A DNA stretch of 32,000 bases from the NCBI GenBank assembly GCA_963843975.1, contig CAWJMG010000003.1, forward strand, positions 930,001 through 962,000, given 5' to 3'. The notes below the pieces were generated by a model. It had not been told where the DNA came from, did no database searches, and saw only the letters and a program-made list of their open reading frames with translations. Origin of the DNA: an uncultured Actinomycetes bacterium (lineage in GTDB: Bacteria; Actinomycetota; Actinomycetes; S36-B12; CAIYMF01). Made by a program: the position numbers and the translations under genes. Shown here in pieces: positions 8,504-25,670 of this stretch (positions are counted from its first letter, which is position 1; each line of letters starts with the position of its first letter).

Positions 8504-8507
8504 GCGG

Positions 8508-9305: not shown

Positions 9306-9462
9306 GACGTGCGTCCTCCCCTGGGCAGGATGTGGCTCCCGCTCCACAGTGGAGGTCGGCACCCCGGGCCCGGCCCTTGAGCCGGGCGGGGGCCGTCCGG
9401 GTGGCGCATAGGGTGGGCGGTCCGGGCTGCGCAGACGTGCGGCCCCTCGAGGAGGAGCGTCC

Positions 9463-10104: not shown

Positions 10105-10120
10105 ACCGGGGGATTGCTCG

Positions 10121-10891
10121 CTAGCGGACGGGGTGGCCAGCCGTTGCGATCGCGGCCTTGACCTCGCCGATGGTGAGGTCGCCGAAGTGGAAGACGCTCG
10201 CGGCCAGCACCGCATCGGCCCCGGCCTCGACGGCGGGCACGAAGTCCTCGACCTTGCCGGCGCCGCCGCTCGCGATGACGGGGACGGAGACGACCGCCCG
10301 GACGGCGCGCAGCAGCGGCAGGTCGTAGCCGTCCTTGGTGCCGTCGGCGTCCATCGAGTTGAGCAGGATCTCACCGGCACCGAGCTCTGCCGCCTGCACC
10401 GCCCACCCGACGGCGTCGACGCCGGTGGATCGGCGTCCGCCGTGGGTGGTGACCTCCCAGCCGGACTCGGTGGTGACACCCTCGGGGCCGCGGCGGGCGT
10501 CGACCGACAGCACGATGCACTGGGCACCGAACCGCTCGGCCGCCTCGCGCAGAAGCTCGGGCCGGGCGAGGGCTGCGGTGTTGACGCCGACCTTGTCGGC
10601 GCCCGCGCGCAGGAGGCGGTCGACGTCGTCGACGGTGCGCACTCCCCCGCCGACGGTCAGCGGGATGAAGACCTGCTCGGCCGTGCGCCGCACGACGTCG
10701 TACGTCGTGGCGCGGTCGCCGCTGCTCGCGGTGATGTCCAGGAAGACCAGCTCGTCGGCGCCCTGCGCGTCGTAGGCGCGGGCGAGCTCGACCGGGTCGC
10801 CGGCGTCGCGGAGGTCGACGAAGTTGACGCCCTTGACGACGCGTCCGGCGTCGACGTCGAGGCAGGGGATGACACGGACGGCAACGGGCAC
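10121..10891 (-). CDS. hisF: Imidazole glycerol phosphate synthase, cyclase subunit
   Basis: Contains [19 protein letters not shown]...[11 protein letters not shown]...PLTVGGGVR...GADKV..NTAA...[25 protein letters not shown]. The GTG at 10891 was chosen, giving 256 aa. Confidence 0.93.
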
Positions 10892-10955
10892 GTCGCACAG
10901 CCTAGGCGGGCGGTCTCGACAGGCCTCCACGGGTTCTCTGGCTTACGGTCGACCC

Positions 10956-11366
10956 ATGACCGAGCACCCCGGCGGAGAGCAGTCCCTCGCCGAGACGGAG
11001 CGTCTCGCGGCCAGCACCTATCTCGCGCTCACGACGTACAAGAAGGACGGCACCGCTGTCGTCACGCCCGTGTGGGCGTCGACGGACGGCACACGTCTGT
11101 ACGTGTGGACCCAGGCGGACGCCGGCAAGGTGAAGCGGGTGCGCAACCGCGGACACGTGCAGGTGGCGCCGTGCGACGCCCGCGGAGCCCTGCAGGGTGC
11201 GCCGGTCGATGCGAGCGCCCGAGTAGCCGACTCGCCCCAGGACCTCGCCAAGGTGACGGCCTTGCACAAGGCGAAGTACGGCGTGCAGTTCAGCCTCTTC
11301 AGCCTCGCCGGCAAGGTCTTCCGCCGCGGCCGCCCCTACGCCGCCCTCGAGATCACCGTCGTCTGA
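10956..11366 (+). CDS. PPOX-class (pyridoxamine 5'-phosphate oxidase-like), probably F420-dependent, small oxidoreductase
   Basis: A 136-aa protein. The sequence YLALTTYKKDGTAVVTPVW...LYVWTQADAGKVKRVRN..HVQVAPCDARG matches the PPOX-class split-barrel pattern. Confidence 0.65.
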   Translation: MTEHPGGEQSLAETERLAASTYLALTTYKKDGTAVVTPVWASTDGTRLYVWTQADAGKVKRVRNRGHVQVAPCDARGALQGAPVDASARVADSPQDLAKVTALHKAKYGVQFSLFSLAGKVFRRGRPYAALEITVV

Positions 11367-11409
11367 CCCAGCCCCTGCGGCGACGGGCAAGCACTCCGCG
11401 GACGAAGTC

Positions 11410-11459
11410 GATTCGGTAGTGGTAAGGCGCGCTCTGCGCCGCCTTTCCACTACCGAATC
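11410..11459. terminator. Long hairpin between convergent genes (candidate bidirectional terminator)
   Basis: GATTCGGTAGTGG (11410-11422) pairs with CCACTACCGAATC (11447-11459). AAGGCG/CGCCTT pairs further inside after one mismatch. It lies between the stops at 11366 (+) and 11497 (-). Confidence 0.6.
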
Positions 11460-11496
11460 CCAGCCCGGGACCGTTTCGGCCGCCGTGGTAGCCGAG

Positions 11497-12705
11497 TCAA
11501 GGTTCGGCGGGCACCGGCGGACGGCGGTCTCCGCCGGCCCAGCGGAGCGCGGCTCCGGCGACGAGCATGACCGCGATCGCGGCTGCGGCGTTCAGCGGCA
11601 GCCCGGCGTACTCGATCGTGCGGGTGGGGAAGCCGCCGAGGCCGGTCGCGGAGATGACGAGCGTCGAGATGCCGATCAGCAGCGTGGCGACGCACGCGAC
11701 CACGGCGGCGGCTCGCGGTGACGGACGACGGCTGCGCAGCGGCGCGTCCCACCAGACCAGGGGCGCGTGCTCGAGCGGCCAGAGCAGGCGGACGACCGCC
11801 CACACGCCCACGCCGTACGCCGCGATGAACACGACGCTGCCGAGCAGGTAGCCCCAGCCGGCGGGGACGGGGTAGCCGTCGGCGCCGATGGTCACCGGCC
11901 GGTCGAGGTGCAGCGCGTGCGCGAGGGTCGACACGGCGATGAGCACCGGGAGGTGCCAGAGGTAGAGCGTCATCGCGACGAGGTTGACGCCAGTGACGGG
12001 ACGCCAGATTCGAGGACGCTCGAGCAGACGCCGGAGGGGCGCGTCGAGCAGCGTGACCAGCGCAGCCAGCACGACCGAATGGATCGCGAGCACGATCGTC
12101 GGCGGGGCCATGTTGCTCACGGGCTCGCCGGGCATGCCGACCATCGAGACCGGGTACGGGCCGTAGCGGATGAGGACGGCGTTCGCGGTGAAGGCGAGCG
12201 CGACGGCCGCGACCAGCACCGGCCACGGGTAGGCGCCGAGCGAGCCGTGGGAGCGCAGTGCGCCGAGGTAGGCGGGCACGGCCCAGGCGAGGACGAAGTT
12301 GAGCAGCGCCACCGCCTCGGGGAGCCCGAGCGCGAACCGCGCGAGGTCGACGAGCCCGACCAGTCCGAGCAGCAGCAGGAGGCCGAGCACTCCCCCGAGC
12401 AGGCTCGTCCGACCGAACAGCGGCGCGAGCGCCGTCACGAGGAGGTACGCGCCGAGGAACCACAGCAGCTGCGTGGTCAGCATCATGAGCGGCTCGGCCG
12501 TCCTCGCCGGCGCGAGCAGCGTGACGACCGTGGCGATGACGGCCATGAGACCGAGGTAGATCCAGACCGGGCGCAGCAGACGCCGGCCACGACCCCAGAG
12601 CCACGACGCGTAGTCGCCGCCACGCGCGTGATGGCGTTCGTACGACAGGGCGTTCGCAGCGCCGCCCGCGAAGAAGAACAGCGGCATGATCTGCAGGATC
12701 CAGGT
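11497..12705 (-). pseudogene. Acyltransferase-3 family membrane protein, C-terminal 402 codons, separated from its N-terminus by the integrated element
   Basis: The reading frame is open upstream of the internal ATG at 12687 and reads ...EALTWILQIMPLFFFAGGAANALSY..., followed by about 9 TM helices. The missing first ~69 codons are at 22560-22766. Confidence 0.8.
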
Positions 12706-12713
12706 GAGCGCCT
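12702..12713. repeat. Left junction repeat (attL core) AGGTGAGCGCCT
   Basis: It matches 22556-22567 (AGGCGAGCGCCT) at 11 of 12 positions, and the 8-bp GAGCGCCT is identical. Confidence 0.75.
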
Positions 12714-12749
12714 CAATCCGTCCAGCGCAGTAGTCCCCCGCGTGTCGGC

Positions 12750-13034
12750 CTAGGCGCCGTCGGACTCCTCGGCGGCGGCCCTAGCGGTGGCACGCTCGGC
12801 GGCCCGCTCGCGAGCGCCCTCCCCGTAGTTGATTAGCGGCCGGAGAGCGGCCGACGCGGCGTCACGGAGTGTGTAGGCCGTCGCGAGGTCACCCCCTCCC
12901 ATCCCGTAGATGTAGCCGACAGTCCACCCCTCGGGGTCGGGCTCGAACGTGACGCCGAGGAGGTACTCCTCTCCGGCGGCCAGGAGGTCGGCTACGGCGG
13001 ACAGGGTCTCGGCGTCGTGCGGCTCGGCGGTCAT
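12750..13034 (-). CDS. Hypothetical acidic 94-aa protein (last gene of the leftward operon)
   Basis: Clean ATG ORF with high third-position GC. No recognisable motif. Confidence 0.55.
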   Translation of the reverse strand: MTAEPHDAETLSAVADLLAAGEEYLLGVTFEPDPEGWTVGYIYGMGGGDLATAYTLRDAASAALRPLINYGEGARERAAERATARAAAEESDGA

Positions 13035-13078
13035 GGCCGGAGTCTTGCACCCGGCTCCGACGACCGGGAAGACGCCGA

Positions 13079-13123
13079 GAGCCCCGCACCTCGACGCCGG
13101 GGGAAGCGTGAGGGGCGGGGCTC
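13079..13123 (-). terminator. Hairpin downstream of the 326-aa gene, sharing sequence with the hairpin at 21000-21035
   Basis: GAGCCCCGCaCCTC pairs with GAGGgGCGGGGCTC, with a loop of about 17 nt. On the minus strand it reads GGAGCCCCGCCCCTCAC. Confidence 0.4.
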
Positions 13124-13178
13124 CGGGGTGCTCGGCGGGGCGACGGGGGGGCGCACCCCACCGAGCGGTCTCGGGGGT

Positions 13179-14159
13179 CTAGATCACCTCGACCTCGCCG
13201 AGGTTGTCGAGGATCTCCGACCGGCTCCAGGCGTAGACGGTATCGGCGGCGGCGGCCTGGGCGGCGTCCTCGTCCACGGCCTCGACCTCGACGGAGTAGA
13301 CCGTCACCCGGTAGGACCGGGTCCGGCTCGCGGCGTCGCGGAAGTGGTCCTCCAGCCACCCCGGAAGGGCGGCGTAGGCCTTGCTCACGGCGTCCTCGTA
13401 CTCCGAGCACCACCCCTGACGCACGGCCTGCTCGCGGCACACCTCGCCGATAGCGGTCACGGCGGCCTGACCCTCCCGGTAGCGCGTCGAGGCGAGGCGG
13501 TCGAGGCGCTCGACCTCGGCGGCCTGACGCGCGCTCTCGTCCCTCGCGGCCTGGAGCGCGTCGAGGAGGACCACGAGGGCGGCCGAGGCGTGACCCTCGG
13601 CGCCGGTCAGGTCTCCGGAGCGCGCGGCGTCGACGGCCGCCGAGAGGATCCGCTCCGCCGCTCCGACGGTGTCGGCGTCGGCAGCCTCGACGGCGTCGAG
13701 AGCGGCGGCACGGGAGGACGCCGGGACGACCGGCGCGAGGGGCTCGGGCTCCTCGGCGACGGCCTCGACCGGCCACGCCTGGAGGACCTCCTCCGTCAGG
13801 TCGTGGGCGCCGTGCGCGCGGTGCTCGGCGTCCTCGTGGCCGGACAGGAGGGAGCACGAGTACCCGCGCGGGCTCGGCGCCTTGCACCGCGAGGCGTCGG
13901 GGATCTCGACGGCCTCCAGGCGCCGGGCGTAGCACGTCACGGCCTCGTCACGAGCCGTGAGCCGGACGCGGACGAGGGACTCGGAGGCCGTGGCCTCGGC
14001 GGACTCCAGGGCCTCCACGACGCCGACCTCCCCGACGGTCACGCCGGAGTAGGGCTCGATGAAGCGGACGCGCGCCTCGGGGACGAGGCGGGCGTCCCTG
14101 AGGTGCGGGAGAGCGGTCGAGGCGTCGGGCGCTGCGGGGGTGGAGAGAGTGGCGGTCAT
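13179..14159 (-). CDS. Hypothetical 326-aa protein
   Basis: The ATG at 14159 is preceded by TAAGGAGCCCTCTCACC, the motif copy at 14161-14173. The protein is Ala/Glu-rich and helical in the middle, with a Cys-containing C-terminal part (REQAVRQGWCSEYEDAV). I recognised no family. Confidence 0.6.
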   Translation of the reverse strand: MTATLSTPAAPDASTALPHLRDARLVPEARVRFIEPYSGVTVGEVGVVEALESAEATASESLVRVRLTARDEAVTCYARRLEAVEIPDASRCKAPSPRGYSCSLLSGHEDAEHRAHGAHDLTEEVLQAWPVEAVAEEPEPLAPVVPASSRAAALDAVEAADADTVGAAERILSAAVDAARSGDLTGAEGHASAALVVLLDALQAARDESARQAAEVERLDRLASTRYREGQAAVTAIGEVCREQAVRQGWCSEYEDAVSKAYAALPGWLEDHFRDAASRTRSYRVTVYSVEVEAVDEDAAQAAAADTVYAWSRSEILDNLGEVEVI

Positions 14160-14160
14160 G

Positions 14161-14173
14161 GTGAGAGGGCTCC
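14161..14173 (-). repeat. Start-associated motif copy GGAGCCCTCTCAC
   Basis: One nt upstream of the ATG at 14159. The TAA stop of the upstream gene abuts it. Confidence 0.7.
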
Positions 14174-14467
14174 TTAGCGGTTGGGGTTGGCGGTGCGGTT
14201 GCGGGCGTCGGCGTCGGACCACGAGGCCCGGCGCCGTAGGAGGACCGTCACGACGACGGCCCGGCGGCCGTCGGCGCTCTCGGCGACGACGACGGAGAGA
14301 GGGCCTCGGGTGAAGCGGCGGCGGCCCTCGTGCGGCTCGGACACGTCCGGGCGCCGGAGCGCCTCGGCGATCTCCTCGGGCTCCACGTCACGCTCGGCCA
14401 TGACGCGCCGGGCGTGGTGAGTGAGGGCGACGCCGTCGGGATAGCGGTCGGCCGCGTGCGTCGTCAC
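14174..14467 (-). CDS. DUF4258-like small protein (putative toxin-like fold)
   Basis: A 97-aa protein, ...VALTHHARRVMAERDVEPEEIAEAL..P...HEGRRRFTRGPLSVVV......VVVTVLL. This matches my recollection of the DUF4258 pattern (H-A-x-x-R-M-x-E-R ... VV ... TV). GTG at 14467 with GGAGG 7 nt upstream and a GTGA overlap. Confidence 0.5.
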   Translation of the reverse strand: MTTHAADRYPDGVALTHHARRVMAERDVEPEEIAEALRRPDVSEPHEGRRRFTRGPLSVVVAESADGRRAVVVTVLLRRRASWSDADARNRTANPNR

Positions 14468-14742
14468 GAGGTGGCCTCCGCCGTCACGGCCTCGGCGGCC
14501 TGGACGACGCGCCGGGCCTGACGCCGGGTCCTCCAGGACCCCACGAGCCGGACGGCCAGGAGGACGAGGACGACGCACGCGCGCCACGTCCACCGGAGCG
14601 CGCGCCACGTCAGGACGACGGCCCACCGGAGGAGGTGCCACGCGGCCACGGCCAGGAGGACCGGGAGCGCGAGGAGGACCCACGAGAGCGCGCCGACGAC
14701 GGGCGAGGACGAGGGAGCCGGGGCGCGGCGGTCGTCGCTCAT
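14464..14742 (-). CDS. Hypothetical small membrane protein (2 TM, Trp/Arg-rich)
   Basis: A 92-aa protein from the ATG at 14742, which overlaps the upstream stop as ATGA. Two hydrophobic helices. Confidence 0.5.
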   Translation of the reverse strand: MSDDRRAPAPSSSPVVGALSWVLLALPVLLAVAAWHLLRWAVVLTWRALRWTWRACVVLVLLAVRLVGSWRTRRQARRVVQAAEAVTAEATS

Positions 14743-14960
14743 CGGCCCTCGCCTCCGGCCACGATGCGGAGGCTCGCGGAGTGAGCGTCGGACACGGCCA
14801 CGGCGGCGGGCTCGCGGTCCAGGAGGTCGAGGGCGGCTCGGCGCCACGCGGCGGCCTCGCGGCGTGCGTCGTCCAGGCGGGCGGCGGCCAGGAGGACGCC
14901 GAGGAGGAGGCCGACGGTCGCGGCCACGAGGGCCAGGGCGGCGGCGGAGAGAGCGAACAT
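14739..14960 (-). CDS. Hypothetical small membrane protein (1 TM)
   Basis: A 73-aa protein, MFALSAAALALVAATVGLLLGVLLAAA.... The ATG at 14960 directly follows GGAGCCCTCTCA. Confidence 0.5.
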   Translation of the reverse strand: MFALSAAALALVAATVGLLLGVLLAAARLDDARREAAAWRRAALDLLDREPAAVAVSDAHSASLRIVAGGEGR

Positions 14961-14972
14961 TGAGAGGGCTCC
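14961..14972 (-). repeat. Start-associated motif copy GGAGCCCTCTCA
   Basis: Immediately 5' of the ATG at 14960. Confidence 0.7.
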
Positions 14973-14979
14973 TAGCGAT

Positions 14980-14991
14980 GTGAGAGGGCTC
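14980..14991 (-). repeat. Tandem second motif copy GAGCCCTCTCAC, followed by ATC rather than ATG
   Basis: The minus strand reads GAGCCCTCTCAC-ATC-GCTA-GGAGCCCTCTCA-ATG. Confidence 0.6.
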
Positions 14992-15060
14992 GGAAGTCCC
15001 GGCCGGGGAAGCGCGACGGGGGAGGCACGCTCCCCCGGCCGGGGGTCTAGCGGGGGCGGG

Positions 15061-15660
15061 TCAGGAGGCCTTGACGCACGACGCGGCCGGGGTCGAGAGG
15101 ACCGGGCCGGAGGTGTCGGTGGAGACCTGGACGGCATACCCGGTGAGGGCGAGGGTCGCGCCGTCGGCGAGAGCCGAGCCGGGGCGGCCGATCGTCACCT
15201 GCACCTGCTTCGGCGTCCCCACCTGGAGCGGGACGCCGCACGCCGAGCCGGGGGTGGAGGTCGAGGAGGTGGACTCGACCGACAGGCTCCAGCCGGTCTG
15301 CGGGCTCACGGGCGCGGCGACTCCGGCCACGGTTCCGTCGGCGCCGGTCGCCACGAGGGAGGCGGTGTAGGTGCAGGACTCGCCCGGGTAGATCCCGGAT
15401 CCGCCGGTCGAGGAGAGCACGCCGGAGTCCACGGTCAGGCTCGGGCACCCGGCCGGGCCGGAGGCGGGGCCGACGGTCGTCCACGAGGCGGAGAAGGATC
15501 CGCCCTTGACGGTGCCGGAGAAGTTGGCTCGGGCGAGGTACGCCGCGAGGGCGACTCCGGCGGCGGCCACGACGGCCACGACGGCCACGACGGGGACGCC
15601 GAGGACGCGGCGGCCGAGGATGCCGCGACGGTGGGTCGCGGAGGGGTAGGCGTGGGACAT
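15061..15660 (-). CDS. Predicted secreted or membrane-anchored Ser/Thr/Gly-rich beta-type protein with 4 Cys
   Basis: A 199-aa protein with a basic N-terminus, the hydrophobic anchor VLGVPVVAVVAVVAAAGVALAAYLA, then a low-complexity, beta-rich sequence. The ATG at 15660 directly follows GGAGCCGTCTCAC. Confidence 0.6.
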   Translation of the reverse strand: MSHAYPSATHRRGILGRRVLGVPVVAVVAVVAAAGVALAAYLARANFSGTVKGGSFSASWTTVGPASGPAGCPSLTVDSGVLSSTGGSGIYPGESCTYTASLVATGADGTVAGVAAPVSPQTGWSLSVESTSSTSTPGSACGVPLQVGTPKQVQVTIGRPGSALADGATLALTGYAVQVSTDTSGPVLSTPAASCVKAS

Positions 15661-15673
15661 GTGAGACGGCTCC
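15661..15673 (-). repeat. Start-associated motif variant GGAGCCGTCTCAC
   Basis: Immediately 5' of the ATG at 15660. Confidence 0.65.
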
Positions 15674-15901
15674 TAAACGGTCGAGGGCCTCGCGGCTCTC
15701 CGGCGCCACGGTGGCGCCGTGCTCGGAAAGGTAGCACCCGGCCTCTGACAGGCGCGCCAGGGCGTCCACAGGCGCGGCGTGACCGTTACGGCGGCCGGGT
15801 GCTCTCGACGGCCTCACGGGGCGCTCACGAGCCGCGAAAGGCCTACGTCCGGCGGCGTGTGACAGGGACGCCGACGGCTCCGGGGTGGGACCCTCGGCGG
15901 C
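15674..15901. promoter_or_regulatory. Divergent intergenic control region between the leftward operon and the XRE regulator
   Basis: About 240 bp between divergent starts. It contains a 19-bp palindrome CGGCGCCAC-G-GTGGCGCCG (15701-15719) and the direct 9-mers ACAGGCGCG at 15748 and 15768, 20 bp apart. Confidence 0.45.
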
Positions 15902-16186
15902 ATGGTGACCGCAGCAGAAACCGAGGGCCTAGACGCGCTCGTGTCGGACAACGTCCGAGCCGCACGGGCTCGGCTCCGGATCCGTCAGGCGGACCTAGCG
16001 GAGCGCCTCGGGTGGAGCCGGGCGAGCGTTGCGAGCCTGGAGGACCGGCGCCGACGGGTGACCCTCGCGGACGCGGTCGGCTTGTGCTCGGCGCTCGGGC
16101 TCACCTTGACCGAACTCCTCGACGGCCGGGAGGGCGCCGAGGCCCGGCGGGCTCTCGGCCTGGAGGCGTCCGGACGCAACGTCTAG
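15902..16186 (+). CDS. XRE/Cro-CI-type helix-turn-helix transcriptional regulator
   Basis: A 94-aa protein. LRIRQADLAERLGWSRASVASLEDRRRRVTLADAVGLCSALGLTLTELL is a typical HTH_3 signature. It is the only plus-strand gene in the element. Confidence 0.75.
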   Translation: MVTAAETEGLDALVSDNVRAARARLRIRQADLAERLGWSRASVASLEDRRRRVTLADAVGLCSALGLTLTELLDGREGAEARRALGLEASGRNV

Positions 16187-16190
16187 ACGG

Positions 16191-16243
16191 GTCAGGCCCC
16201 GTGCCGGGAGCCCTCTCACAGGATCGGCGGCACGGGGCCTGAC
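16191..16243. terminator. Perfect 16-bp stem hairpin between convergent genes, with the start-associated motif in its 21-nt loop
   Basis: GTCAGGCCCCGTGCCG (16191-16206) pairs with CGGCACGGGGCCTGAC (16228-16243). The loop is GGAGCCCTCTCACAGGATCGG. Confidence 0.65.
16207..16219 (+). repeat. Motif copy GGAGCCCTCTCAC on the plus strand, not followed by a start codon
   Basis: It sits in the loop of the 16191-16243 hairpin. Confidence 0.7.
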
Positions 16244-16253
16244 GGGTCGAACT

Positions 16254-16487
16254 CTAGTCGCGGTGCGGCTCGTGCTCTGCCAGGGCGTCGAGGGCCTCGG
16301 CCAGGGCTCGGAGGTCCTCGCGGATCTCCGGCTCGGGCTCGACGGCCACGGGCTCCTCGGCCACGGGCGCCGAGCCCCACCCGGAGTGGTCGGCCAGGGT
16401 TGCCGTGAACGCGGAGACCTCCTCCGGCGCACCCGGTTCGGGGGCGAACCGGCGCACCTCGCGCCTCACGAAGTGGTTCCCGCTCAC
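16254..16487 (-). CDS. Hypothetical acidic 77-aa protein
   Basis: GTG at 16487 with GGAGG upstream and a GTGA overlap with the preceding gene. Confidence 0.45.
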   Translation of the reverse strand: MSGNHFVRREVRRFAPEPGAPEEVSAFTATLADHSGWGSAPVAEEPVAVEPEPEIREDLRALAEALDALAEHEPHRD

Positions 16488-16840
16488 GCGGCCACCTCCA
16501 CGGGCTCGACGGAGACGACGCCGACAGGGAGCACCTCGGCCCGGTGTGACGCCTCGCGGATCCACGCGGCGGCCACGGAGGCCCGGAGGTCGGAGGCGGC
16601 CTCGGCGGCGCCGAGCGCGAGCGACGGCGGGAGCGCGCGGTTACTCGGGATCACGAGCAACGGAACGCACCGCGAGGCGATGAGACGACGCGCGGCCTCG
16701 TGGTCTCCGTCCACCTCGCCGGACTCCAGGAGGACGACGAGGGCTCTCCCGTACAGGCGCCGGGTCGAGGTCCGGTAGGCGGTGGCGCCGGGCGTCACTT
16801 GGTGCAGGGCCGTCGCGGCGCCGTACCGGGTGGCGCTCAC
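16484..16840 (-). CDS. Hypothetical 118-aa protein
   Basis: The GTG at 16840 overlaps the upstream stop as GTGA. Sequence ...LYGRALVVLLESGEVDGDHEAARRLIASRCVPLLVIP...; no family assigned. Confidence 0.45.
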   Translation of the reverse strand: MSATRYGAATALHQVTPGATAYRTSTRRLYGRALVVLLESGEVDGDHEAARRLIASRCVPLLVIPSNRALPPSLALGAAEAASDLRASVAAAWIREASHRAEVLPVGVVSVEPVEVAA

Positions 16841-17646
16841 GAGGCGGCGCCGGTCCACTCGACGCGCGGGGCCGTCGCGGCCTTGTGAGCGGCGGCGGCC
16901 TTGTCGGCGGCGCGGTAGTGCTCGACCGCCGAGCCCGCGAGGGTGTCGAGGTCGGCCGGGAGAGGGAGCCGGTCGGCGAGGCGCTCGGTGCGGACCATCT
17001 GGGCGCTGAAGTCGTGCGGTCGCCGGGTGAGGCGGTCGCCGAGCATCTGCGGCACGAGGGCCTCGGCGTACCCGGCGGCACGGAGCGCGACGCCGTCGAG
17101 GGAGGACAGGCTCCGGAAGGCGTCGCGCGCGGCCTCCACGGAGGCCTCGGCCTCGGCGATGCGGCCTCGGGCCTCCGTCGAGGTCCTGACGGCCTCGACG
17201 TGCAGGGCCTCGCGGGTCGCCGGGTCGAGGCAGGCGACTCCGGCGGCGCGGTCCACGTCGGCGGCGGTGTGCCGGGCCTCGGCCACGGCGGCGTGGATCC
17301 GCGCCCACAGGCCGAGGAGCCGGGCGCCGAGCGCGTCGGCGTCGGGGGCCTTCACCTTCACCGGGCCGGAGGTCGTCGCCTCGGCGGCGGCCCTCCACGC
17401 GCCGAGCGCGGCGGCGTGGTCGGTCAGGGCGTCGAGTGCCTCGGAGCGCGTGTCCTCGACGCGGTCCGAGACCGCCGCGTGAGCCGCGAGCGCGTCGGCG
17501 ACCGGCGCCGAGACGGCGGCGAGGTGGGCGAGGAGCCCGGGGTCAGTCTTCGGCTCGGCGGTGGCGGTGAGGATGCCCGGTCCGCCGCTCCACGTCTGCG
17601 GGACGAGGAGGGAGTGGCCGGAAGCGGAGGTGTAGAGGTTCGTCAT
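16837..17646 (-). CDS. Hypothetical 269-aa Ala-rich helical protein
   Basis: The ATG at 17646 is preceded by the degenerate motif GGAGGGCGCTCACG (17647-17660). No family recognised. Confidence 0.55.
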   Translation of the reverse strand: MTNLYTSASGHSLLVPQTWSGGPGILTATAEPKTDPGLLAHLAAVSAPVADALAAHAAVSDRVEDTRSEALDALTDHAAALGAWRAAAEATTSGPVKVKAPDADALGARLLGLWARIHAAVAEARHTAADVDRAAGVACLDPATREALHVEAVRTSTEARGRIAEAEASVEAARDAFRSLSSLDGVALRAAGYAEALVPQMLGDRLTRRPHDFSAQMVRTERLADRLPLPADLDTLAGSAVEHYRAADKAAAAHKAATAPRVEWTGAAS

Positions 17647-18067
17647 CGTGAGCGCCCTCCTAGGGCGCGAGGCCTCGGCCGCCGGGGCGGAGTCGAGGGT
17701 CCGGCCGTCGCGCCAATCGCGACGTTCACCGGGGGTGCGGACGGGGGTCCGCGAGTGTCGGGGGATCGGCGGATTGCCTACTCTCCCAACGGTTTACGGG
17801 GTTCGTGCCAATCGGCCGGCCAGGGAGGCCAGGGCCGAAAGTCCTTGTGCCGCAAGGACTCTGAGCATTCGCCGAAAGTCCGTGTGCGCGTTGCGGTCTC
17901 GCGGTTCGGGGCTCGCGAGGCGGTCGATGGGCTCGGGTCGTCTCGCATTGTGGGATGACTGCGTTAACTAAAGGCCGTCTGACCTGCGGAAACGTCTGTA
18001 AGGCGATTTTGCGGGCGGGGTGGGGTGAGTGGACCGGGACGGGGGTCTCGGGCCTCTACGGGCCGTT

Positions 18068-18277
18068 CTAGGCCGTTCTAGAGGGTGCCTCCTGACGCCG
18101 TCGGAAGGCTCTCGCCTCCTTCGGCGTCACGGTGCCGCCGACGGTCGTCGGCTCCTCGACGCCGACCCGTGAGGCCTCGGCCAGGAGCCGGAGCGCCGCG
18201 AGGGCCTCGACCCGGACGGCCTCGGGGGTCTCGACGCCGAGCGGAGGCCACGGGTCGCGCGTCACCTCGGCCGCCAT
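18068..18277 (-). CDS. Hypothetical 69-aa protein
   Basis: ATG at 18277, overlapping the upstream ORF end by 16 nt. The stop lies inside a tandem GGCCGTTCTA x2 repeat. Confidence 0.4.
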   Translation of the reverse strand: MAAEVTRDPWPPLGVETPEAVRVEALAALRLLAEASRVGVEEPTTVGGTVTPKEARAFRRRQEAPSRTA

Positions 18278-18732
18278 GACAGGTGGTCGGGCTCGACGCA
18301 ACGGGGCTCGGCGCACACGACGCGGATCGGGCCGACGCGCTCGGACGACAGGGCCTCGATCACGAGGCGCCGCACCTCGGCCGCGCGGCTCGGCGACGGC
18401 CACGCCGAGCACCCCGTGGCGGGGTCGTGCTCGGCGAGGCCGACGACGGCGGAGAGGACCTCGGCCGGGTCGCCGGTCGCGAGGGCTCGGCCGAGGGCGT
18501 AGCCGGTCACCTTCGGTCGGCTCGGCTCGGAGGCCTGGACCCGCCGGGTCCGCTCGCGCTGACAGGCGAGGCAGCACCGCGCCCGGCCGCCGGGCTTGCT
18601 CCGGTTGCGGACGAGGAGCGAGAGCCGCGACTCACCGCACGAGGCGCACGCCCGCGAGGCCTCGACGCGCTCGGGCTCGGGGACCTGACGGAGGAGGACG
18701 ACGGCGAGCCGGTCGAGGGTCGTCGTGGTCAT
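18262..18732 (-). CDS. Zinc-ribbon protein with an HNH-associated-like C-terminus
   Basis: A 156-aa protein with CASCG...CCLAC (four Cys) and a C-terminal VVCAEPRCVEPDHLSW. The latter resembles the C-x-x-x-C-V-N-P-x-H-L motif of phage HNH/AP2-type DNA-binding proteins. ATGA overlap at 18729-18732. Confidence 0.45.
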   Translation of the reverse strand: MTTTTLDRLAVVLLRQVPEPERVEASRACASCGESRLSLLVRNRSKPGGRARCCLACQRERTRRVQASEPSRPKVTGYALGRALATGDPAEVLSAVVGLAEHDPATGCSAWPSPSRAAEVRRLVIEALSSERVGPIRVVCAEPRCVEPDHLSWRPR

Positions 18733-19148
18733 CGGCGGCACCCGCCGTGGAGAGGCTGGAGGACGCCGCGCCGAGCCGCGACGGGGCGACCGCACGAGGT
18801 GCAGGGCTCGACCTCGCCGAGGCGAGCGCGGGCGGCGGCCTCCTCGGTCATCCGAGCCATGAGGGCGGCGTAGCGGAGCGGCGCGGCCTCCTCGGCCCGG
18901 AGGTACTCCAGGTCGGGGGTTGCACGCCTCGCACGCTCGGCGGCCACGAGGACGGCCACGCCGGACTCCTCGGCCACGTCGAGGCCGTCGGTCTGCGCGC
19001 GGTCGAGGGCATCGACGGTCAGCCACCTACGGCCCCGGGTCCGCTCGGCGTCGGCACGGAGCGCCGGGACGCACGGCCAACCGGCCAGGGACTCCAGGCC
19101 CTTGCTGTCGTTCACGGTGAGGCCGGGGTCACGGGTGGAGGCGGTCAC
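18729..19148 (-). CDS. Hypothetical 139-aa protein with a C-terminal CxxC...C motif
   Basis: The GTG at 19148 overlaps the upstream stop as GTGA. The C-terminus reads EVEPCTSCGRPVAARRGVLQPLHGGC. Confidence 0.45.
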   Translation of the reverse strand: MTASTRDPGLTVNDSKGLESLAGWPCVPALRADAERTRGRRWLTVDALDRAQTDGLDVAEESGVAVLVAAERARRATPDLEYLRAEEAAPLRYAALMARMTEEAAARARLGEVEPCTSCGRPVAARRGVLQPLHGGCRR

Positions 19149-19990
19149 GGCGCGGGCTCCTCGGCGGGCTGGGGACGGGCGGCGCGCTCGCGGCGGAGGG
19201 CGTCGATACGAGAGAGGTCGGCGGCACGGGTGGCGGCCTCCTCGACGGTCAGGGGCTCGGGCCTCGGCACGGTGAACACGACGCCGACGGCGCCGCGACG
19301 GGAGAGCCGGGCGGCCTCCTCCAGGAGCCGGAAGAAGTCGCCTTGCGAGAGGCGCGCACCCTTCCGGACGCCGGAGCGGAACGCGGCGGTGAGGTACTGC
19401 CTCCAGGCCTCGGCGCGGGTGTAGGTGCCGTGGGGGAGGTGGGCGATGAACGTGCGCGCGTGGTCCTCGGCCAGGGTGCGAGCCGCGAGCGTCGAGGCAC
19501 GAGGGCCGAGGGCCGGGGTCGAGCGCCACGCGGTCAGGAGCCCGGCGGTCGAGACCGGGTCACCCTGGGAACGGAGGAGGAGCGACAGGGCCTCGTCGGC
19601 GGCGGTCGCGGACCACGAGCCCCACCCCCGCGACCGCGCCTCGGCGACGGCCCGCGTGCGGGCGAGCGCCGATGCGTACTCGACCGGCTCGGGGTCCGGC
19701 TCGGGGAGCGCGAGGACGAGCGACCGCGCGAGGGTCTCGGCGGCCGGAGCGCCGTGGTCGTCGCGGGGCTGGAGAGTCAGGACGCCGGAGGCATCGGGGG
19801 CGGCCAGGAACCGGCGTAGGTCGGCGTCCTCGGCCACGCGCCACTCGGCGGCGTGCAGGAGGACGGCCAGGACGCGGCCGACGGCCAGGGGCGACAGGAC
19901 CTCGGACGGAGGAGCCATAGGGCCGTCGAGGTGGGCGACGCCGAGCGCGAGGCGGCGGCCGTCGAGGAGGGCGGGGAGGTTGGCGAACAT
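19145..19990 (-). CDS. Hypothetical 281-aa protein (first gene after the AT-rich island; a replication or DNA-binding role is only a guess)
   Basis: ATG at 19990 (MFANLPALLDG...). The longer track ORF to 20188 has an implausible N-terminus. No family recognised. Confidence 0.5.
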   Translation of the reverse strand: MFANLPALLDGRRLALGVAHLDGPMAPPSEVLSPLAVGRVLAVLLHAAEWRVAEDADLRRFLAAPDASGVLTLQPRDDHGAPAAETLARSLVLALPEPDPEPVEYASALARTRAVAEARSRGWGSWSATAADEALSLLLRSQGDPVSTAGLLTAWRSTPALGPRASTLAARTLAEDHARTFIAHLPHGTYTRAEAWRQYLTAAFRSGVRKGARLSQGDFFRLLEEAARLSRRGAVGVVFTVPRPEPLTVEEAATRAADLSRIDALRRERAARPQPAEEPAP

Positions 19991-20600
19991 GGGGGCGGGT
20001 CTCGCTTTCGGTTGGCGGGTGGAGGTCGAGCGGATCGAGCGGCGGCGGGTCGAGGGGTGGGCGACGGCTCCGAGTAGGACCCGCCTCGGAGCCGTCGCGC
20101 CGGTACGGCCTGAGACCCGCCAAGGCAACGGCCGTACGTCTGTCCCCGCACCGCTCGACGCGGTCGAGCCGGAGGCGCTCGCGCCCACCCCTGCCTCCTG
20201 AAGTCAGGAGCGGGCGTTACCTAGGCGAGCGTCGAGCGGTGCGGGGGTCTAGGGGCTCGGCGCCGGGGCGGCCGAGCGGGTGTCTCACTCCGCAGATAGG
20301 CGAACTCGTGCGCGATCCGCAGCGCGCGGCGCCGGAGCGCCGAGCGTCGGCCGAGGAGGACAGGGCAGGAGGGCGCCAGGAGCCCCCGACCTGCTCACGG
20401 TTCGCCGGGTGAATCTCGGTGGCCGGGCGCCGGGAGCGGCCTGGAGGTGGTCGAGGGCTTGTGCGCTTGTGAACCCTCAGACTCGTACGCACCCTGCCGG
20501 GCTATGCCGCTTCGGAAGGGGACGGGAGCGCGGAGGGGTCCCTCCCCACCCCTCCCGGCGGAAACGCGCGGGGGTTTCGGCGGTTTAGGGCTCGCGAGGC

Positions 20601-20771
20601 GTGATAGTGACGGATTAGCGAGATAGTGACAGATAGGACGAAGTGCCGTTAGTACCTTCTATTTCCTATTCCTGTTAGAGGCTCTCTAAAAACAAACCTA
20701 GAGAGGGAATAGTAAATAGCGGTAGATAGCCTCACTTCGTCCTATCTGTCACTTAGGGCTGAATCTGTCAC
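20601..20771. promoter_or_regulatory. AT-rich island with a 21-bp perfect inverted repeat and four GTGAC(A/G)GAT 9-mers (candidate origin or operator cluster)
   Basis: AGTGACAGATAGGACGAAGTG (20625-20645) is the reverse complement of CACTTCGTCCTATCTGTCACT (20733-20753). GATAGTGAC occurs at 20603 and 20622, and ATCTGTCAC at 20744 and 20763. The 87-bp spacer is strongly AT-rich in a GC-rich context. Confidence 0.55.
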
Positions 20772-20999
20772 CACCCCTCGACCGGCCTCCGCCCGGCGGC
20801 ACCGCCGACGGCCTCCAGGCGCCACCGTCGGCGCTCCCGCGCCACCCTCGGCGGCCTCCTGACGCCGTATCAGGGCTCCAGGAGCCCCGCTCCCGGCCGA
20901 ACGGCCGCACCCCCGTATGTCCGGACCCCCGGCCATTCCGTGCCGCCTACGGGCCTCCTGGGGCCTCGGGGCCTGGAGCCGTGCTCACGCCGGACGCCG

Positions 21000-21035
21000 A
21001 GGAGCCCCGCTCCTCGTGAGAGGGGCGGGGCTCCT
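21000..21035 (-). terminator. Stem-loop 15 nt downstream of the integrase stop
   Basis: AGGAGCCCCGC(t)CCTC pairs with GAGG(g)GCGGGGCTCCT around a 4-nt loop. The minus-strand RNA would be AGGAGCCCCGCCCCUC-UCAC-GAGGAGCGGGGCUCCU. There is no U-tract. Confidence 0.5.
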
Positions 21036-21049
21036 GGTGCTCGGGCCGG

Positions 21050-22504
21050 TCAGGCGGCGGCCTCGTGCTCGACGGCCGCCGGGTCCAGGCGCCATGCGTC
21101 GAGGATCCGGCCGAGGTCGAAGGTCCGGCGGCCTCGGACGCCGGGGCCGAGCGCCAGGGCGCCGACGGTCCGGGCGAGCGCGTCGCGGCGGTCCTCCAGC
21201 GTCCCGGCCTCCCACACGTCCCCGTACGTCCGGCCGGTCTCCCGGAGGACGGTCATCGCGAGCGCCGGGAGAGCCGCGAGGCGCTCGGCCTCGTCCTCGG
21301 CGGCGTCGAGAGCCGCGAGGGCCTCGGCGCGCTCGGAGCGCGGCGCCACGGCCAGGGCGGCGCGTGCCGCGTCCACGCGGTCCTCGGCCTGGGCGAGGCG
21401 CTCGGAGGCCTCGTCGGAGAGCCGCACGGAGACGGTCTCGGGCAGGCTCCCCCACCCGGCGAGCCACGCGGCCGAGACGGCGGCCTCGACGGCCTCGGCG
21501 GAGGCAGCGACGGGACGCGCGCAACGCTGACCGGCGCCGTCCGACGGGCAGCGGTAGAAGGACGGCGCGTCGTGCTTGCTGGAGACCGCGAGGCGCGAGC
21601 CGCACGAGTGGCAGACGAGGACGCCGGAGAGCAGACGGGCCGGGCGGCGGTTGCTCGTGCTCGTGCGGCGCTCGGGCGCCGAGAGGATCCGGCGCACCTC
21701 GCGGAGCGTCGAGGCGTCGAGGACCTCGGCCGCGCCGTCTCCCTTGACGAGAGTGTTTCGGAGGCTCGTCCGGCTCCAGGCGGCGGCACGACGCGGGGCG
21801 TGGCCGTGGTCGTTGAGGTAGCGCACGACGCGCACGACGGGCTCTCCAGCGACGACGCGGGCGGCGGCGAGGCGGAGCGTCGCGGCCTCGGCCTCGTCCA
21901 CCTCCAGGACCTTTCCGGCGCCGTCGGGGTTGGGGACGGCGCGGAGGCCGTAGGCAATGACTCCGCCGTTCCAACGGCCCTCAGCGCGGAGGCGCTCGTG
22001 GGAGGCGATGTTGCGGGCTTTCGTCGCCTCGCGCTCGGCCTCGGCCATGCCTCCGAGGACGCCGACCATGAGCGGCCACGCCGAGACGTCGCCGGAGTCG
22101 AGATTGTCCGAGTAGGACAGGAACCGGACCGGCTCGGAGACCGCCGTGCCGTCGGCGTCAATGCCCTTCACCGTGTCGAGGAACCGGGCGAGTCCGGCGG
22201 TGCCGCCACGGCTCACGCGGTCCAGGCGCCACGCGAGGAGATGCGTCGCGCGACCCTCGCGGGCGTCGGCGAGCCACGCGAGGAGGCCGGGCCGGTTGCG
22301 GAGGGCGCCGGACTCTCCGTCGTCGGTCCAGATGGAGACCACCTCCAGGCCGTGACGCTCGGCGAGGGCGCGGAGGTCGGCCTCTTGTGCCTGGAGGCCG
22401 GTCGAGTCGGCCCCGGAGGCCTTGCTCTTGCGGAGGTACAGGGAGGCGGTGGCGGTCATGGTCGAGGAGGGGGCCAGCGTGCGTGAGGTTGCTCGGGTGG
22501 TCAT
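21050..22504 (-). CDS. Large serine recombinase (integrase)
   Basis: A 484-aa protein. The N-terminal resolvase-type catalytic domain reads ASLYLRKSK...DDGESGALRNRPGL...LLAWRLDRVSRG. The recombinase domain contains GRWNGGVIAYG. The zinc ribbon reads VCHSCGSRL...YRCP...QRC, followed by an Ala/Glu-rich coiled-coil tail. The ATG at 22504 directly follows GGAGCCCTCTCAC. Confidence 0.9.
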   Translation of the reverse strand: MTTRATSRTLAPSSTMTATASLYLRKSKASGADSTGLQAQEADLRALAERHGLEVVSIWTDDGESGALRNRPGLLAWLADAREGRATHLLAWRLDRVSRGGTAGLARFLDTVKGIDADGTAVSEPVRFLSYSDNLDSGDVSAWPLMVGVLGGMAEAEREATKARNIASHERLRAEGRWNGGVIAYGLRAVPNPDGAGKVLEVDEAEAATLRLAAARVVAGEPVVRVVRYLNDHGHAPRRAAAWSRTSLRNTLVKGDGAAEVLDASTLREVRRILSAPERRTSTSNRRPARLLSGVLVCHSCGSRLAVSSKHDAPSFYRCPSDGAGQRCARPVAASAEAVEAAVSAAWLAGWGSLPETVSVRLSDEASERLAQAEDRVDAARAALAVAPRSERAEALAALDAAEDEAERLAALPALAMTVLRETGRTYGDVWEAGTLEDRRDALARTVGALALGPGVRGRRTFDLGRILDAWRLDPAAVEHEAAA

Positions 22505-22517
22505 GTGAGAGGGCTCC
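22505..22517 (-). repeat. Start-associated motif copy GGAGCCCTCTCAC
   Basis: Immediately 5' of the integrase ATG. Confidence 0.7.
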
Positions 22518-22535
22518 GTTTCGGCGAGCGGTGAA

Positions 22536-22766
22536 CTACTGCTCTCCGAAGATAGAGGCGAGCGCCTGCGTCCACGGGAACGCCGCGAGCAGGTTGCCGA
22601 GCACGGGTACGCCGTCCGGCCAGGCCACCACGGCCATGATCACGTGGCCGACCACGACGACGAGCAGCGCCGCCGCGCGAGCGCCGTCCACGACGCGGTC
22701 ACGGTCGGGCGGCGTCTCGGCCGCAGCCCGAGCCGTCGGCACCGCCGCGAACACCCGGATGCTCAC
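22536..22766 (-). pseudogene. Acyltransferase-3 N-terminal fragment (69 native codons plus 7 element-derived codons and a stop)
   Basis: GTG at 22766, reading ...DGARAAALLVVVVGHVIMAVVAWPDGVPVLGNLLAAFPWTQAL, then ASIFGEQ-stop. The native part ends at 22560. Confidence 0.75.
22556..22567. repeat. Right junction repeat (attR core) AGGCGAGCGCCT
   Basis: Matches 12702-12713 at 11 of 12 positions. Confidence 0.75.
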
Positions 22767-22854
22767 GCCCTCAGCGTGGCACGGGGTGTGCCACGAAGGG
22801 GTCTTTCGTCGCTACGAGCGCAGCGAAGCTGACCCTATCGGGGCGCGGCGACAC

Positions 22855-23589
22855 TCAGGCGCTGTGGCGCTCGGTGAAGTCGAGGATGCGCGTCCACGCG
22901 TCGGAGCAGGCCTCGGCGTGGTCGGCGAAGGTGCGGTCGAAGAAGGAGTGCGGCGCACCGGCGTACACGTGCCGTTCGGCGTCGACGCCCCGGGCCGTGA
23001 GACCGGCGATGAGGTCGTCGAAGCTCTCGGGCGCGATGCTCTGATCGGCGCCGGCGAGCAGCATGAGGATCGGCGCCTGCACCTGGTCGGCGACGGGGCC
23101 GACGTTGTCGACGCTGCCGTAGAAGCCGATCGCGCCCGCGAGGCCAGGCTGGTCGGCGGCCTGGCGGTAGGAGTTGCGGCCGCCGAAGCAGAAGCCGACC
23201 GTGAAGACCGACTCGGCACCGTCGGCGCGGAGCTTGTCGAGGCAGGCGGCGACGTCAGCTGCGATCCCCGGCTGGGTGGTCTGCGGGATGTGCGTCTGCC
23301 AGTCGAAGCCCTCGGCGCGGTCGTCGGTGTCCGCCGTACGGCCGAACCAGTCGAACGCGACGGCGTGGAAGCCCGCCTCGGCGAAGCGCTCCGCGAGGTG
23401 CTTGTAGTAGTGGTGCAGGCCGCGGATGTCGGGGAGGATCACGATCCCCTTCGTCGACGGCGCGGCCGGGTGCGCCTCGTAGGCCATGAAGCTGTTGCCG
23501 TCTGCGGCGGTGAGGCGCAGGTCGCCGCGGGCGCCGACCTCGCCCTGGCGCGGCGGTGCGGGCGGGCGGGACTCGTCGCTGTGGCACAT
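22855..23589 (-). CDS. Dienelactone hydrolase family protein
   Basis: Contains GIVILPDIRGLHHYYKHLAERFAEAGFHAVAFDWFGR...VGFCFGG...APHSFFD. The ATG at 23589 is preferred over the longer ORF. Confidence 0.8.
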   Translation of the reverse strand: MCHSDESRPPAPPRQGEVGARGDLRLTAADGNSFMAYEAHPAAPSTKGIVILPDIRGLHHYYKHLAERFAEAGFHAVAFDWFGRTADTDDRAEGFDWQTHIPQTTQPGIAADVAACLDKLRADGAESVFTVGFCFGGRNSYRQAADQPGLAGAIGFYGSVDNVGPVADQVQAPILMLLAGADQSIAPESFDDLIAGLTARGVDAERHVYAGAPHSFFDRTFADHAEACSDAWTRILDFTERHSA

Positions 23590-23666
23590 GGCTCGGACCC
23601 TACGTCGGCGTCGTACGCCATGCACCCAGGACAGGGGCGATCGACGAGCGGCCCTTCACGCGCGGA

Positions 23667-24446: not shown

Positions 24447-24513
24447 GCCCCCACCCTAACGAGCGCCGAAGCGGACCCTTCCTGCCCGTGCGCGCGACGT
24501 CGCCGCGCAGCGC

Positions 24514-24876: not shown

Positions 24877-24886
24877 GCCGTCCCCG

Positions 24887-25525: not shown

Positions 25526-25529
25526 CGCG

Positions 25530-25670
25530 TCATCCCTGCTTCGGCAGCCACGCCATGGCGGCCGCGAACGACAGCACGGCGGCGCTCGCCAGCACCATCG
25601 CCGGCAGCCAGCGGCGGTTGCGCGCGAAGGAGTACACGCCGCCGATCAGGATCCCGGCGAGCACGAGCAT
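25530..25670 (-). CDS. Possible 46-aa small membrane protein in the hisB-hisH gap
   Basis: My own translation gives [46 protein letters not shown]. An alternative GTG lies at 25682. It is too short for the ORF track. Confidence 0.3.

Follow-up and report, generated by a model that had tools for sequence, protein, structure and literature searches.

A 9.85-kb element with its own large serine integrase splits an acyltransferase-3 gene in an uncultured actinobacterium

A 32,000-nucleotide stretch of DNA from an uncultured actinobacterium (GCA_963843975.1, contig CAWJMG010000003.1, positions 930,001 to 962,000; 74% G+C; hereafter the window, to which all positions given without a locus name refer) contains a 9,854-bp element that splits a host gene for a membrane acyltransferase of the acyltransferase-3 (AT3) family. 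We conclude with high confidence that this is a mobile element, and that it was inserted by conservative site-specific recombination catalysed by its own large serine integrase (LSI). A preliminary description of the window, made from the sequence alone, had interpreted the locus as a serine-integrase insertion. Our analysis supports that interpretation, and both the integration event and its mechanism are well supported.

Split gene, junctions and integrase (coordinates, strand, feature)
22536–22766, minus: 5' part of the split acyltransferase-3 gene, with 69 native codons followed by 7 from the element and a stop
11497–12687, minus: 3' part of the same gene, 396 aa when read from its first ATG, annotated as a separate protein, P0161
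22534–22581, minus: upstream junction in gene sense (attL: B arm, core, P' arm), core at 22560–22567
12688–12735, minus: downstream junction in gene sense (attR: P arm, core, B' arm), core at 12706–12713
21050–22504, minus: int, intact large serine integrase of 484 aa, with its ATG at 22504, 56 bp from the core

Results

Deletion of the element rebuilds one reading frame

The minus-strand open reading frame (ORF) that starts at 22766 reads ...NLLAAFPWTQAL (...AFPWTQAL), and then runs into the foreign codons ASIFGEQ and a stop at 22536. The frame 5' of the ATG at 12687 stays open and reads ...EALTWILQIMPLFFFAGG; this ATG, the first in the 3' fragment, is residue 76 of the intact protein. Deletion of the 9,854 bp between two copies of AGG(T/C)GAGCGCCT rebuilds the gene. 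Joining 22561 to 12706 gave a 1416-nt ORF of 471 aa, which matched the Pfam family Acyl_transf_3 (PF01757) across the junction (residues 26–363, E = 9e-19), and both junctions lie at the same codon of this one gene. On the plus strand the repeats read AGGTGAGCGCCT (12702–12713) and AGGCGAGCGCCT (22556–22567). They agree at 11 of 12 positions, with 8 consecutive identical base pairs (GAGCGCCT). As an 11/12 match arises by chance between two random 40-nt segments of the window with p of about 0.018, the repeat alone is modest, suggestive evidence.

The preliminary description had reported the ORF from 22766 with its seven unrelated codons and stop, the open frame upstream of the ATG at 12687, the uninterrupted ORF obtained by joining them (69 + 402 codons), and a junction repeat with 8 identical base pairs; all were reproduced from the sequence. 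In an independently assembled Logan contig (L003), the upstream (attL) junction is present together with 7.4 kb of the element, all 100% identical.

A close relative has the empty site

The rebuilt protein has hundreds of full-length relatives, and all 120 of those listed are single, uninterrupted proteins of 431–537 aa. The best relative among them, 93% identical, is encoded at a locus (L001; GCA_038316965.1, contig JBBQAY010000012) with the same gene order as the window: hisD-C-B-H-A, dienelactone hydrolase, acyltransferase, PNPOx, hisF, hisI and trpE. At the junction L001 reads TTCCCGTGGACGCAGGCGCTCACCTGGATCCTGCAG, the exact sequence predicted for the joined attB after deletion of the element. 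Window positions 2026–12713 and 22556–32000 aligned collinearly to L001 by blastn, and the two blocks overlapped in L001 by the 12-bp repeat alone. Thus, the insertion in the window is clean, 9,854 bp long, and without target duplication beyond the shared core when compared with the empty site. We regard this empty site, with its exact predicted sequence, as the decisive evidence.

The his/trp neighbourhood named in the preliminary description was confirmed through this synteny. That description had also proposed that an empty attB might be found in related genomes, and had considered the opposite case, in which relatives always have two separate genes here. L001 carries the exact uninterrupted junction, and the gene is whole both there and in all of the listed homologues. 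The peptide encoded by attB, PWTQALTW.LQ.MPLFF, is the most conserved stretch of the protein, with most positions 93–100% conserved among 72 orthologues.

attP is an inverted repeat centred in the shared core

The 8-bp core common to attP and attB reads AGGCGCTC in gene sense. The single mismatch between the junction repeats (A in attB and attR, G in attL) falls outside this core, as expected if the mismatched base belongs to the attP arm. The rebuilt attP is, in gene sense, GGGACTACTGCGCTGGACGGATTGAGGCGC joined to TCGCCTCTATCTTCGGAGAGCAGTAGTTCACC (56-bp site, GGGACTACTGCGCTGGACGGATTGAGGCGCTCGCCTCTATCTTCGGAGAGCAGTAGTT; junction sequence, GGACGGATTGAGGCGCTCGCCTCTATCTTCGG). It forms an imperfect inverted repeat, symmetric at 19/28 (22/32) positions. 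A scan of offsets up to ±8 nt gave one sharp maximum (19 symmetric positions, compared to ≤11 elsewhere), with its centre between C and T inside the shared core, and 0.025% (2.5e-4) of window positions reach this symmetry score. attP adjoins int, with 56 bp between the core and the int ATG.

These results confirm the two symmetric attP arms of the preliminary description, at 19 of 27–28 positions and with a unique maximum in the core. The same description had allowed that the repeat and the arm symmetry might be at chance level: the attP symmetry is far above background, whereas the repeat is, by itself, the modest match described above. The restored attB (40-bp site, TTCCCGTGGACGCAGGCGCTCACCTGGATCCTGCAGATCA; junction sequence, CCGTGGACGCAGGCGCTCACCTGGATCCTG) does contain the inner symmetry that had been pointed out, a palindrome GGAnnCAGGnGAGCnCCTGnnTCC (GGAcgCAGGcGC and TCaCCTGgaTCC on either side of the centre) that shares its centre with attP, but this is not significant by itself.

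Large serine integrases use a non-palindromic central dinucleotide inside the shared core. In the window the crossover dinucleotide would be 22561–22562, which is CT in gene sense, AG on the plus strand, and non-palindromic.

The integrase is intact and divergent

The int product has a Resolvase domain (PF00239, residues 22–178, E = 2.5e-20) and a Zn_ribbon_recom domain (PF13408, residues 291–347, E = 2e-7), and matches the PHROG family phrog_95, 'integrase' (E = 2e-69). Its match to the Recombinase domain (PF07508) is weak (residues 205–252, E = 0.003, 18.2 bits against a cut-off of 21.1 bits); several of its homologues have this domain on record. In an alignment with 14 relatives, the catalytic Ser27, R25 and D95-R96..R99 were invariant or nearly so, and the zinc-ribbon residues C298, C301, C319 and C328 were invariant. 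Matches in the PDB include the catalytic domains of TP901-1 integrase and TnpX. The Ala/Glu/Arg-rich helical C-terminus alone suggests the C-terminal coiled-coil. By these sequence features, the gene beside the right junction is a genuine large serine recombinase. The preliminary description had seen one begin about 55 bp inside that junction, and the intact LSI gene indeed has its ATG 56 bp from the core.

Relatives of the integrase are few (29 matches, the best 56% identical). The nearest integrases of isolated phages, among 50,697 phage records, are those of the Streptomyces phages Dubu and Samy (34–35% identity). The int gene shares its strand with the truncated host fragment and starts 31 bp past the stop codon of that fragment, so that transcription of int could come from the host gene's promoter.

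The insertion is expected to inactivate the acyltransferase

AT3 proteins have an R/K-X10-H motif in transmembrane helix 1 (TMH1) and an RXXR motif in TMH3, and the Arg and His of the first motif are essential in the model AT3 enzyme OafA (PMC7448272). The interrupted host gene qualifies as an AT3 gene by its PF01757 match together with both kinds of motif: the 5' fragment holds the TMH1 motif as R30-X10-H41, and an RXXR-like GRGRRLLR, read from the rebuilt sequence, lies in the 3' fragment. As the insertion separates R-X10-H from the remaining 396 residues, with the 3' part starting at residue 76, the split acyltransferase is almost certainly inactive. Both fragments are in frame and about 88–92% identical to the orthologue, and from this conservation we judge the insertion to be recent or reversible.

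The element carries mostly orphan genes

Genes were listed from GC-frame analysis and from gene calls on the Logan contig L003. The element has about 14 genes, all but one on the minus strand. They are laid out as int, a GC-rich hairpin, about 1 kb without coding signal, module A (g281, g139, g156, g69, g269, g118 and a 77-aa ORF), a divergent XRE gene, and module B (the membrane-anchored g199, two small membrane proteins, a DUF4258 protein, g347 and g94).

Other features of the element (coordinates, strand, feature)
20989–21046, minus: GC-rich hairpin with 27-nt arms and a 4-nt loop, just past the int stop
20600–20775 (core 20624–20754), no strand: AT-rich imperfect palindrome, about 43% G+C in a 74% genome
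19145–19990, minus: g281, orphan family, first gene past the ~1-kb non-coding stretch
18729–19148, minus: g139, with a C-terminal CxxC...C motif; homologues lie beside g281 homologues in the related loci L094 and L096
18262–18732, minus: g156, with a CxxC...CxxC zinc ribbon and an HNH-like C-terminal remnant; weak PHROG matches (E = 0.01–0.09)
18068–18277, minus: g69, small protein, from the gene call on L003
16837–17646, minus: g269, Ala-rich protein
16484–16840, minus: g118, with a start that overlaps the g269 stop (translationally coupled)
16254–16487, minus: ORF of roughly 77 aa that continues the operon
16186–16248: hairpin with 21-nt arms after the XRE gene
15902–16186, plus: XRE-family helix-turn-helix (HTH) regulator, the sole plus-strand gene
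15061–15660, minus: g199, Ser/Thr/Gly-rich, with an N-terminal membrane anchor or signal sequence
14739–14960, minus: 73-aa protein with one transmembrane helix, its start preceded by GGAGCCCTCTCA
14464–14742, minus: 92-aa membrane protein
14174–14467, minus: DUF4258-domain protein of about 97 aa (PF14076, E = 1.4e-7)
13179–14159, minus: g347, 326 aa from the ATG at 14159
12750–13034, minus: g94, small protein, last gene before attP in the circular form

Beyond the XRE regulator and the DUF4258 protein, the cargo had no matches in Pfam, NCBIfam or PADLOC (10 cargo proteins for the latter), and the absence of PADLOC matches led us to reject an anti-phage defence island. No cargo protein except the HTH regulator matched PHROG at E < 0.01, and raising the limit to E = 1 gave just weak HNH/zinc-ribbon hints for g156. 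A Walker A motif was absent from all six frames of the element. By tblastn, none of the 50,697 phage records matched the cargo, and the 72,556 plasmid records gave a single weak match, between g94 and a hypothetical protein on a Streptomyces plasmid. The four proteins that were looked up exactly (g281, g269, g199 and g94) are each the sole member of their 90%-identity cluster. The g281 family alignment found no loci in the JGI metagenomes or IMG/VR, and g347, g199 and g269 had no matches in IMG/VR.

g281 has four relatives among 1.84 billion representative proteins. Its structural model (predicted local distance difference test score of 75, from five sequences) has an alpha/beta N-terminal part and a winged-helix-like C-terminal part. 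The model had no significant structural neighbour, and its weak matches were winged-helix domains and primase-helicase proteins (best E = 0.045–0.39). On this model g281 is, tentatively, a possible DNA-binding protein.

A 12-nt leader, GGAGCCCTCTCA, has six matches in the window at ≤1 mismatch (three exact), all of them within the element, where 0.23 were expected: 22506–22517, 15662–15673, 14981–14992, 14961–14972 and 14162–14173 on the minus strand, and 16207–16218 on the plus strand. Copies stand directly before the starts of int, g347 and the 73-aa membrane-protein gene, and, with one mismatch, before that of g199; another lies in the loop of the hairpin after the XRE gene. This shared leader ties int to module B, and it looks like a common translation-initiation or regulatory box.

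A covarying palindrome accompanies the integrase clade

The GC-rich hairpin at 20989–21046 is probably the int terminator. Beyond it, the AT-rich palindrome (20600–20775) folds as a single 176-nt hairpin (−84.8 kcal/mol, z = −10.5 on either strand). Its arms bear tandem GTGACAG repeats, paired as mirror images around a small central T-rich hairpin. Similarly built palindromes, with GTGACGnAA repeats about 10 bp apart, were found 50–450 bp downstream of the int stop in seven related loci, and upstream of the g281 homologue in L094; across loci they range from 105 to 176 nt.

Palindromes at related loci (locus, coordinates, position)
L004, 11630–11734: downstream of int
L005, 11396–11502: downstream of int
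L007, 11512–11625: downstream of int
L008, 1732–1843: downstream of int
L009, 1779–1891: downstream of int
L015, 11597–11704: downstream of int
L096, 1779–1905: downstream of int
L094, 466–593: upstream of the g281 homologue

A covariance model built from seven palindromes gave L007 and L009 as new matches in 1.39 Mb of integrase-flanking DNA, and 22 of the 29 base pairs covary. The sole protein common to the palindrome loci is the integrase clade, and the palindrome occurs in both phage contigs and small elements. It matched no Rfam family at the gathering score (only noise matches to miRNA families were returned). Its candidate roles, judged from the sequence, are an operator array, an int terminator or insulator, or a hairpin origin.

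Two segments of the element, 20000–20600 and 17650–18070, appeared non-coding in the GC-frame plot. An 18-nt perfect inverted repeat (20144–20161 and 20229–20246) lies in the first, which folds moderately better than shuffled sequences (z = −2.9). Gene-free gaps of 0.6–1.3 kb likewise follow int in L004, L006, L089 and L096.

Related integrases occur in phages and in small elements

The closest integrase, 56% identical, comes from L004 (identical to L014; 9870–20105), in the metagenome-assembled Motilibacteraceae genome bin843. There, an element of 10,220 bp splits a gene for a proline-iminopeptidase-like alpha/beta-hydrolase (...VYHTMNGP/SEFHVIGS...), with a GCCC core and an attP symmetric at 18/24 positions. 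Its cargo is a type II restriction-modification pair (Eco57I-like methyltransferase and BsuBI/PstI-type restriction enzyme) plus uncharacterised genes. By gene content, L004 is thus a restriction-modification system riding on the same type of integrase cassette.

A second locus, L091, encodes an integrase 50% identical to that of the window, together with homologues of hth (70%), g199 (45%), the DUF4258 protein (49%) and g347 (29%). These genes run hth, g199, ..., DUF4258, g347, then about 196 bp and int, just as a circular permutation of the window element after excision would place them, and the conserved flank GGCGnCTAGGnCGnCACGCGGGGGA lies just beside the attP position. In L096, an integrase 30% identical is followed by a gap, then by homologues of g281 and g139. 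Profile and BLASTP comparisons of the window cargo with the same-position genes of L004 and L096 gave no homology. Other contigs of the clade are phage-like: L005 has DNA polymerase A, L092 has dNMP kinase, and L007–L009 are IMG/VR contigs of 24–49 kb that carry clade integrases. From these gene contents, we consider the integrase lineage to be phage-associated and also to serve small, modular, non-phage elements.

Other differences between the window and L001

A cupin-domain gene directly downstream of the acyltransferase in L001 (11420–12120) is missing from the window (11387–11496), as is an Imm5-like gene that lies beside the tRNA_edit gene in L001 (2765–3124; window about 29495–29895). 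On sequence comparison these are small strain-to-strain indels flanking the his/trp cluster. Compared to L001, the window also has a single extra frameshifting base in hisB (about 25896–25902) and in a response regulator gene (about 4155–4161), in the context GTCGAGCTGCA; other copies of TGCAGCTCG (26531 and 30434) have no frameshift. The two genes are either real pseudogenes or bear context-specific assembly errors in a long-read genome.

Discussion

How the element would have integrated

We propose that the attP of the circular element spanned about 56 bp, lay about 55 bp 5' of int and was made up of two imperfectly inverted 28-bp arms, and that the host attB lay in the conserved coding stretch PWTQALTW-LQIMPLFF. 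By analogy with characterised LSIs, an integrase tetramer would make staggered cuts at the central CT/AG, rotate the half-sites and religate them, to leave two hybrid junctions and no target duplication. Spread of the element would rely on int, a directionality factor and perhaps a helper. The integrase may still be active.

Several observations weigh against this account. The Recombinase-domain match of the integrase is under the Pfam threshold. The attB symmetry is weak (8/14 and 11/20), tied with another offset, and has a background p of about 0.05. The attP junction 24-mer was not found in the JGI metagenomes or IMG/VR, and these searches showed no circular form or excision product. No recombination directionality factor was recognisable by homology in the element; small ORFs (g94, g69 and g139, for example) are no more than possibilities. 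Both the element and its cargo proteins were seen in one genome only, and hence mobility is deduced from a single insertion event. Finally, given the two apparent frameshifts in host genes of the assembly, small errors in the ORFs of the element are possible.

What kind of element it is

Searches of Pfam, PHROG and NCBIfam and the Walker A scan found no recognisable replication, conjugation, encapsidation or nucleoside triphosphatase (NTPase) genes in the element. Most probably it belongs to a class of small non-autonomous integrative elements, along with L004 and L096. Three other types of element were rejected. A tailed temperate prophage was set aside on the lack of PHROG matches at E < 0.01 (HTH regulator excepted), the lack of matches in phage records, and a size of 9.85 kb, which is too small. 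An actinomycete integrative and conjugative element (AICE) was set aside on the lack of Walker A motifs in six frames and of Rep or Tra matches in Pfam or NCBIfam. A tRNA scan found no gene of this kind, which ruled out a tRNA-targeting island.

It is unlikely, but deserves weighing, that the element is a decayed temperate actinophage, in which an internal deletion took the structural and lysis genes and left the att sites, int, the repressor and early genes. The integrase clade does occur in phage contigs (L005, L092 and L007–L009), its closest isolated-phage members are those of Dubu and Samy, and phage early regions typically encode proteins such as the XRE regulator and the HNH-like zinc-ribbon protein of the cargo. 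Set against this, the cargo other than the HTH regulator has no counterpart in the phage records or in PHROG at the limit given above, and the coding signal, att arms and int have not decayed. Moreover, a similar size and layout recur with different cargo in L004 (10.2 kb) and L096, which argues for a stable size class and not for random decay.

Going further than a small non-autonomous element, one might suppose that the window element, L004 and L096 form an undescribed class of ~10-kb actinobacterial integrative elements that share a cassette of attP, int and AT-rich GTGAC-repeat palindrome, carry orphan cargo and lack recognisable genes for replication, transfer or packaging. The palindrome would then be a cis-acting site of a new kind, serving as an origin, in packaging or transfer, or in integrase-linked control, through which they exploit helper phages with the same cassette. 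We hold this proposal to be doubtful.

A satellite resembling the phage-inducible chromosomal islands would be excised when a helper phage infects, replicate from the palindrome via g281, and be packaged in helper capsids. A length of 9.85 kb would suit such a satellite, as would the layout (int, a long non-coding region that holds the palindrome, an operon whose first gene may encode a winged-helix protein, and an XRE gene in the opposite orientation) and the absence of its own capsid or transfer genes; palindrome and g281 could be an ori-initiator pair. Yet no primase, helicase, terminase small subunit, capsid-remodelling homologue or any NTPase was found, and the fold matches of g281 are not significant. 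The palindrome also lies beside int in full-size phage contigs, so it is part of the int cassette and not a satellite-specific feature. We find a satellite rather improbable.

Still less probable is a domesticated intervening element, comparable to skin in sigK and SP-beta in spsM of B. subtilis (PMC5499854, PMC5025042), whose regulated excision would switch surface acylation on. The undecayed, in-frame halves of the ORF, the position of int for reading from the host gene's promoter, and the B. subtilis precedents are in keeping with it, as is the role of AT3 enzymes in modifying surface glycans that bear on resistance to phages and antimicrobials (PMC9558356). However, the insertion is present in one genome only, with the gene intact in the closest relative and the other listed orthologues, and thus there is no sign of the vertical inheritance or fixation that domesticated elements show; nor was a directionality factor or developmental regulator identified.

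Lastly, a chimeric assembly join or a chance repeat, for which one could cite the apparently single-contig long-read assembly with at least two apparent frameshift errors and the p of about 0.02 for the 12-bp repeat alone, is effectively refuted by the independent Logan contig that covers the attL junction identically, by two junctions at the same codon with an integrase at the junction and an attP that rebuilds as a symmetric site, and by the circularly permuted gene order of L091.

Comparison with known systems

The small non-autonomous element favoured here resembles actinophage LSI systems (phiC31, Bxb1, phiBT1, TG1, R4 and phiJoe) in its integrase, with a resolvase catalytic domain with the nucleophile Ser, a zinc ribbon and, between them, a sub-threshold match to the recombinase domain that those systems have. 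It shares with them a ~50-bp attP beside int that is an inverted repeat around a non-palindromic dinucleotide, and a ~40-bp attB in a conserved ORF, with a short shared core and precise hybrid junctions. In contrast to those systems, the window integrase is ≤35% identical to any in the 50,697 phage records, the AT3 target gene and the att sequences are new, and what carries them, at 9.85 kb and lacking virion genes, is not a phage.

SCO2603-type elements of Streptomyces (considered with phiJoe; PMC5311408) are likewise small and non-phage, and their LSI att sites also lie within an ORF. They carry different cargo in different strains, with integrases akin to those found in true phages (PMC5311408). 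They differ in integrase lineage and target, and it is the window clade that has a conserved palindrome after int. Furthermore, SCO2603 elements enter the target close to its 3' end, possibly leaving it functional, whereas the window insertion, at codon 69 of 471, removes an essential motif.

As with SP-beta and its integrase SprA in spsM, and skin and SpoIVCA in sigK (PMC5499854, PMC5025042), an LSI element splits a gene that precise excision would restore. Unlike these elements of Firmicutes, the window element is actinobacterial and gives no sign of regulated excision, fixation or host control, and no SprB-like directionality factor was recognised in it. AICEs such as pSAM2 (about 11 kb) are similar in size, belong to the same host phylum and integrate site-specifically, but they use tyrosine (rarely serine) integrases at tRNA genes and have Rep and an FtsK-like TraB, whereas the window element lacks NTPase, Rep and Tra matches.

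Thousands of pairs of large serine recombinases and attachment sites have already been predicted computationally (Durrant et al., PMC10083194), and our case resembles these in the type of inference, the comparison of an occupied with an empty site. Intragenic LSI integration, small elements with only an integrase or with variable cargo, and the deduction of att sites from empty sites are established. The window adds a new target gene, new att sites and orphan cargo, together with one conserved cis element beside int.

The window defines, at sequence level, the full set of integrase, attP and attB for a divergent LSI, which is directly usable to build an assay; orthogonal integrases of this kind are sought as genome-engineering tools. 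The cargo amounts to about 8 kb of genes essentially without relatives among billions of proteins. The palindrome adjacent to int, a cis element of this integrase clade in phages and small elements alike, deserves follow-up. For the host, an uncultured-type, high-GC actinobacterium, a surface-modification gene of the AT3 family is predicted to be knocked out by a potentially reversible insertion, which could alter its cell envelope and its susceptibility to phages.

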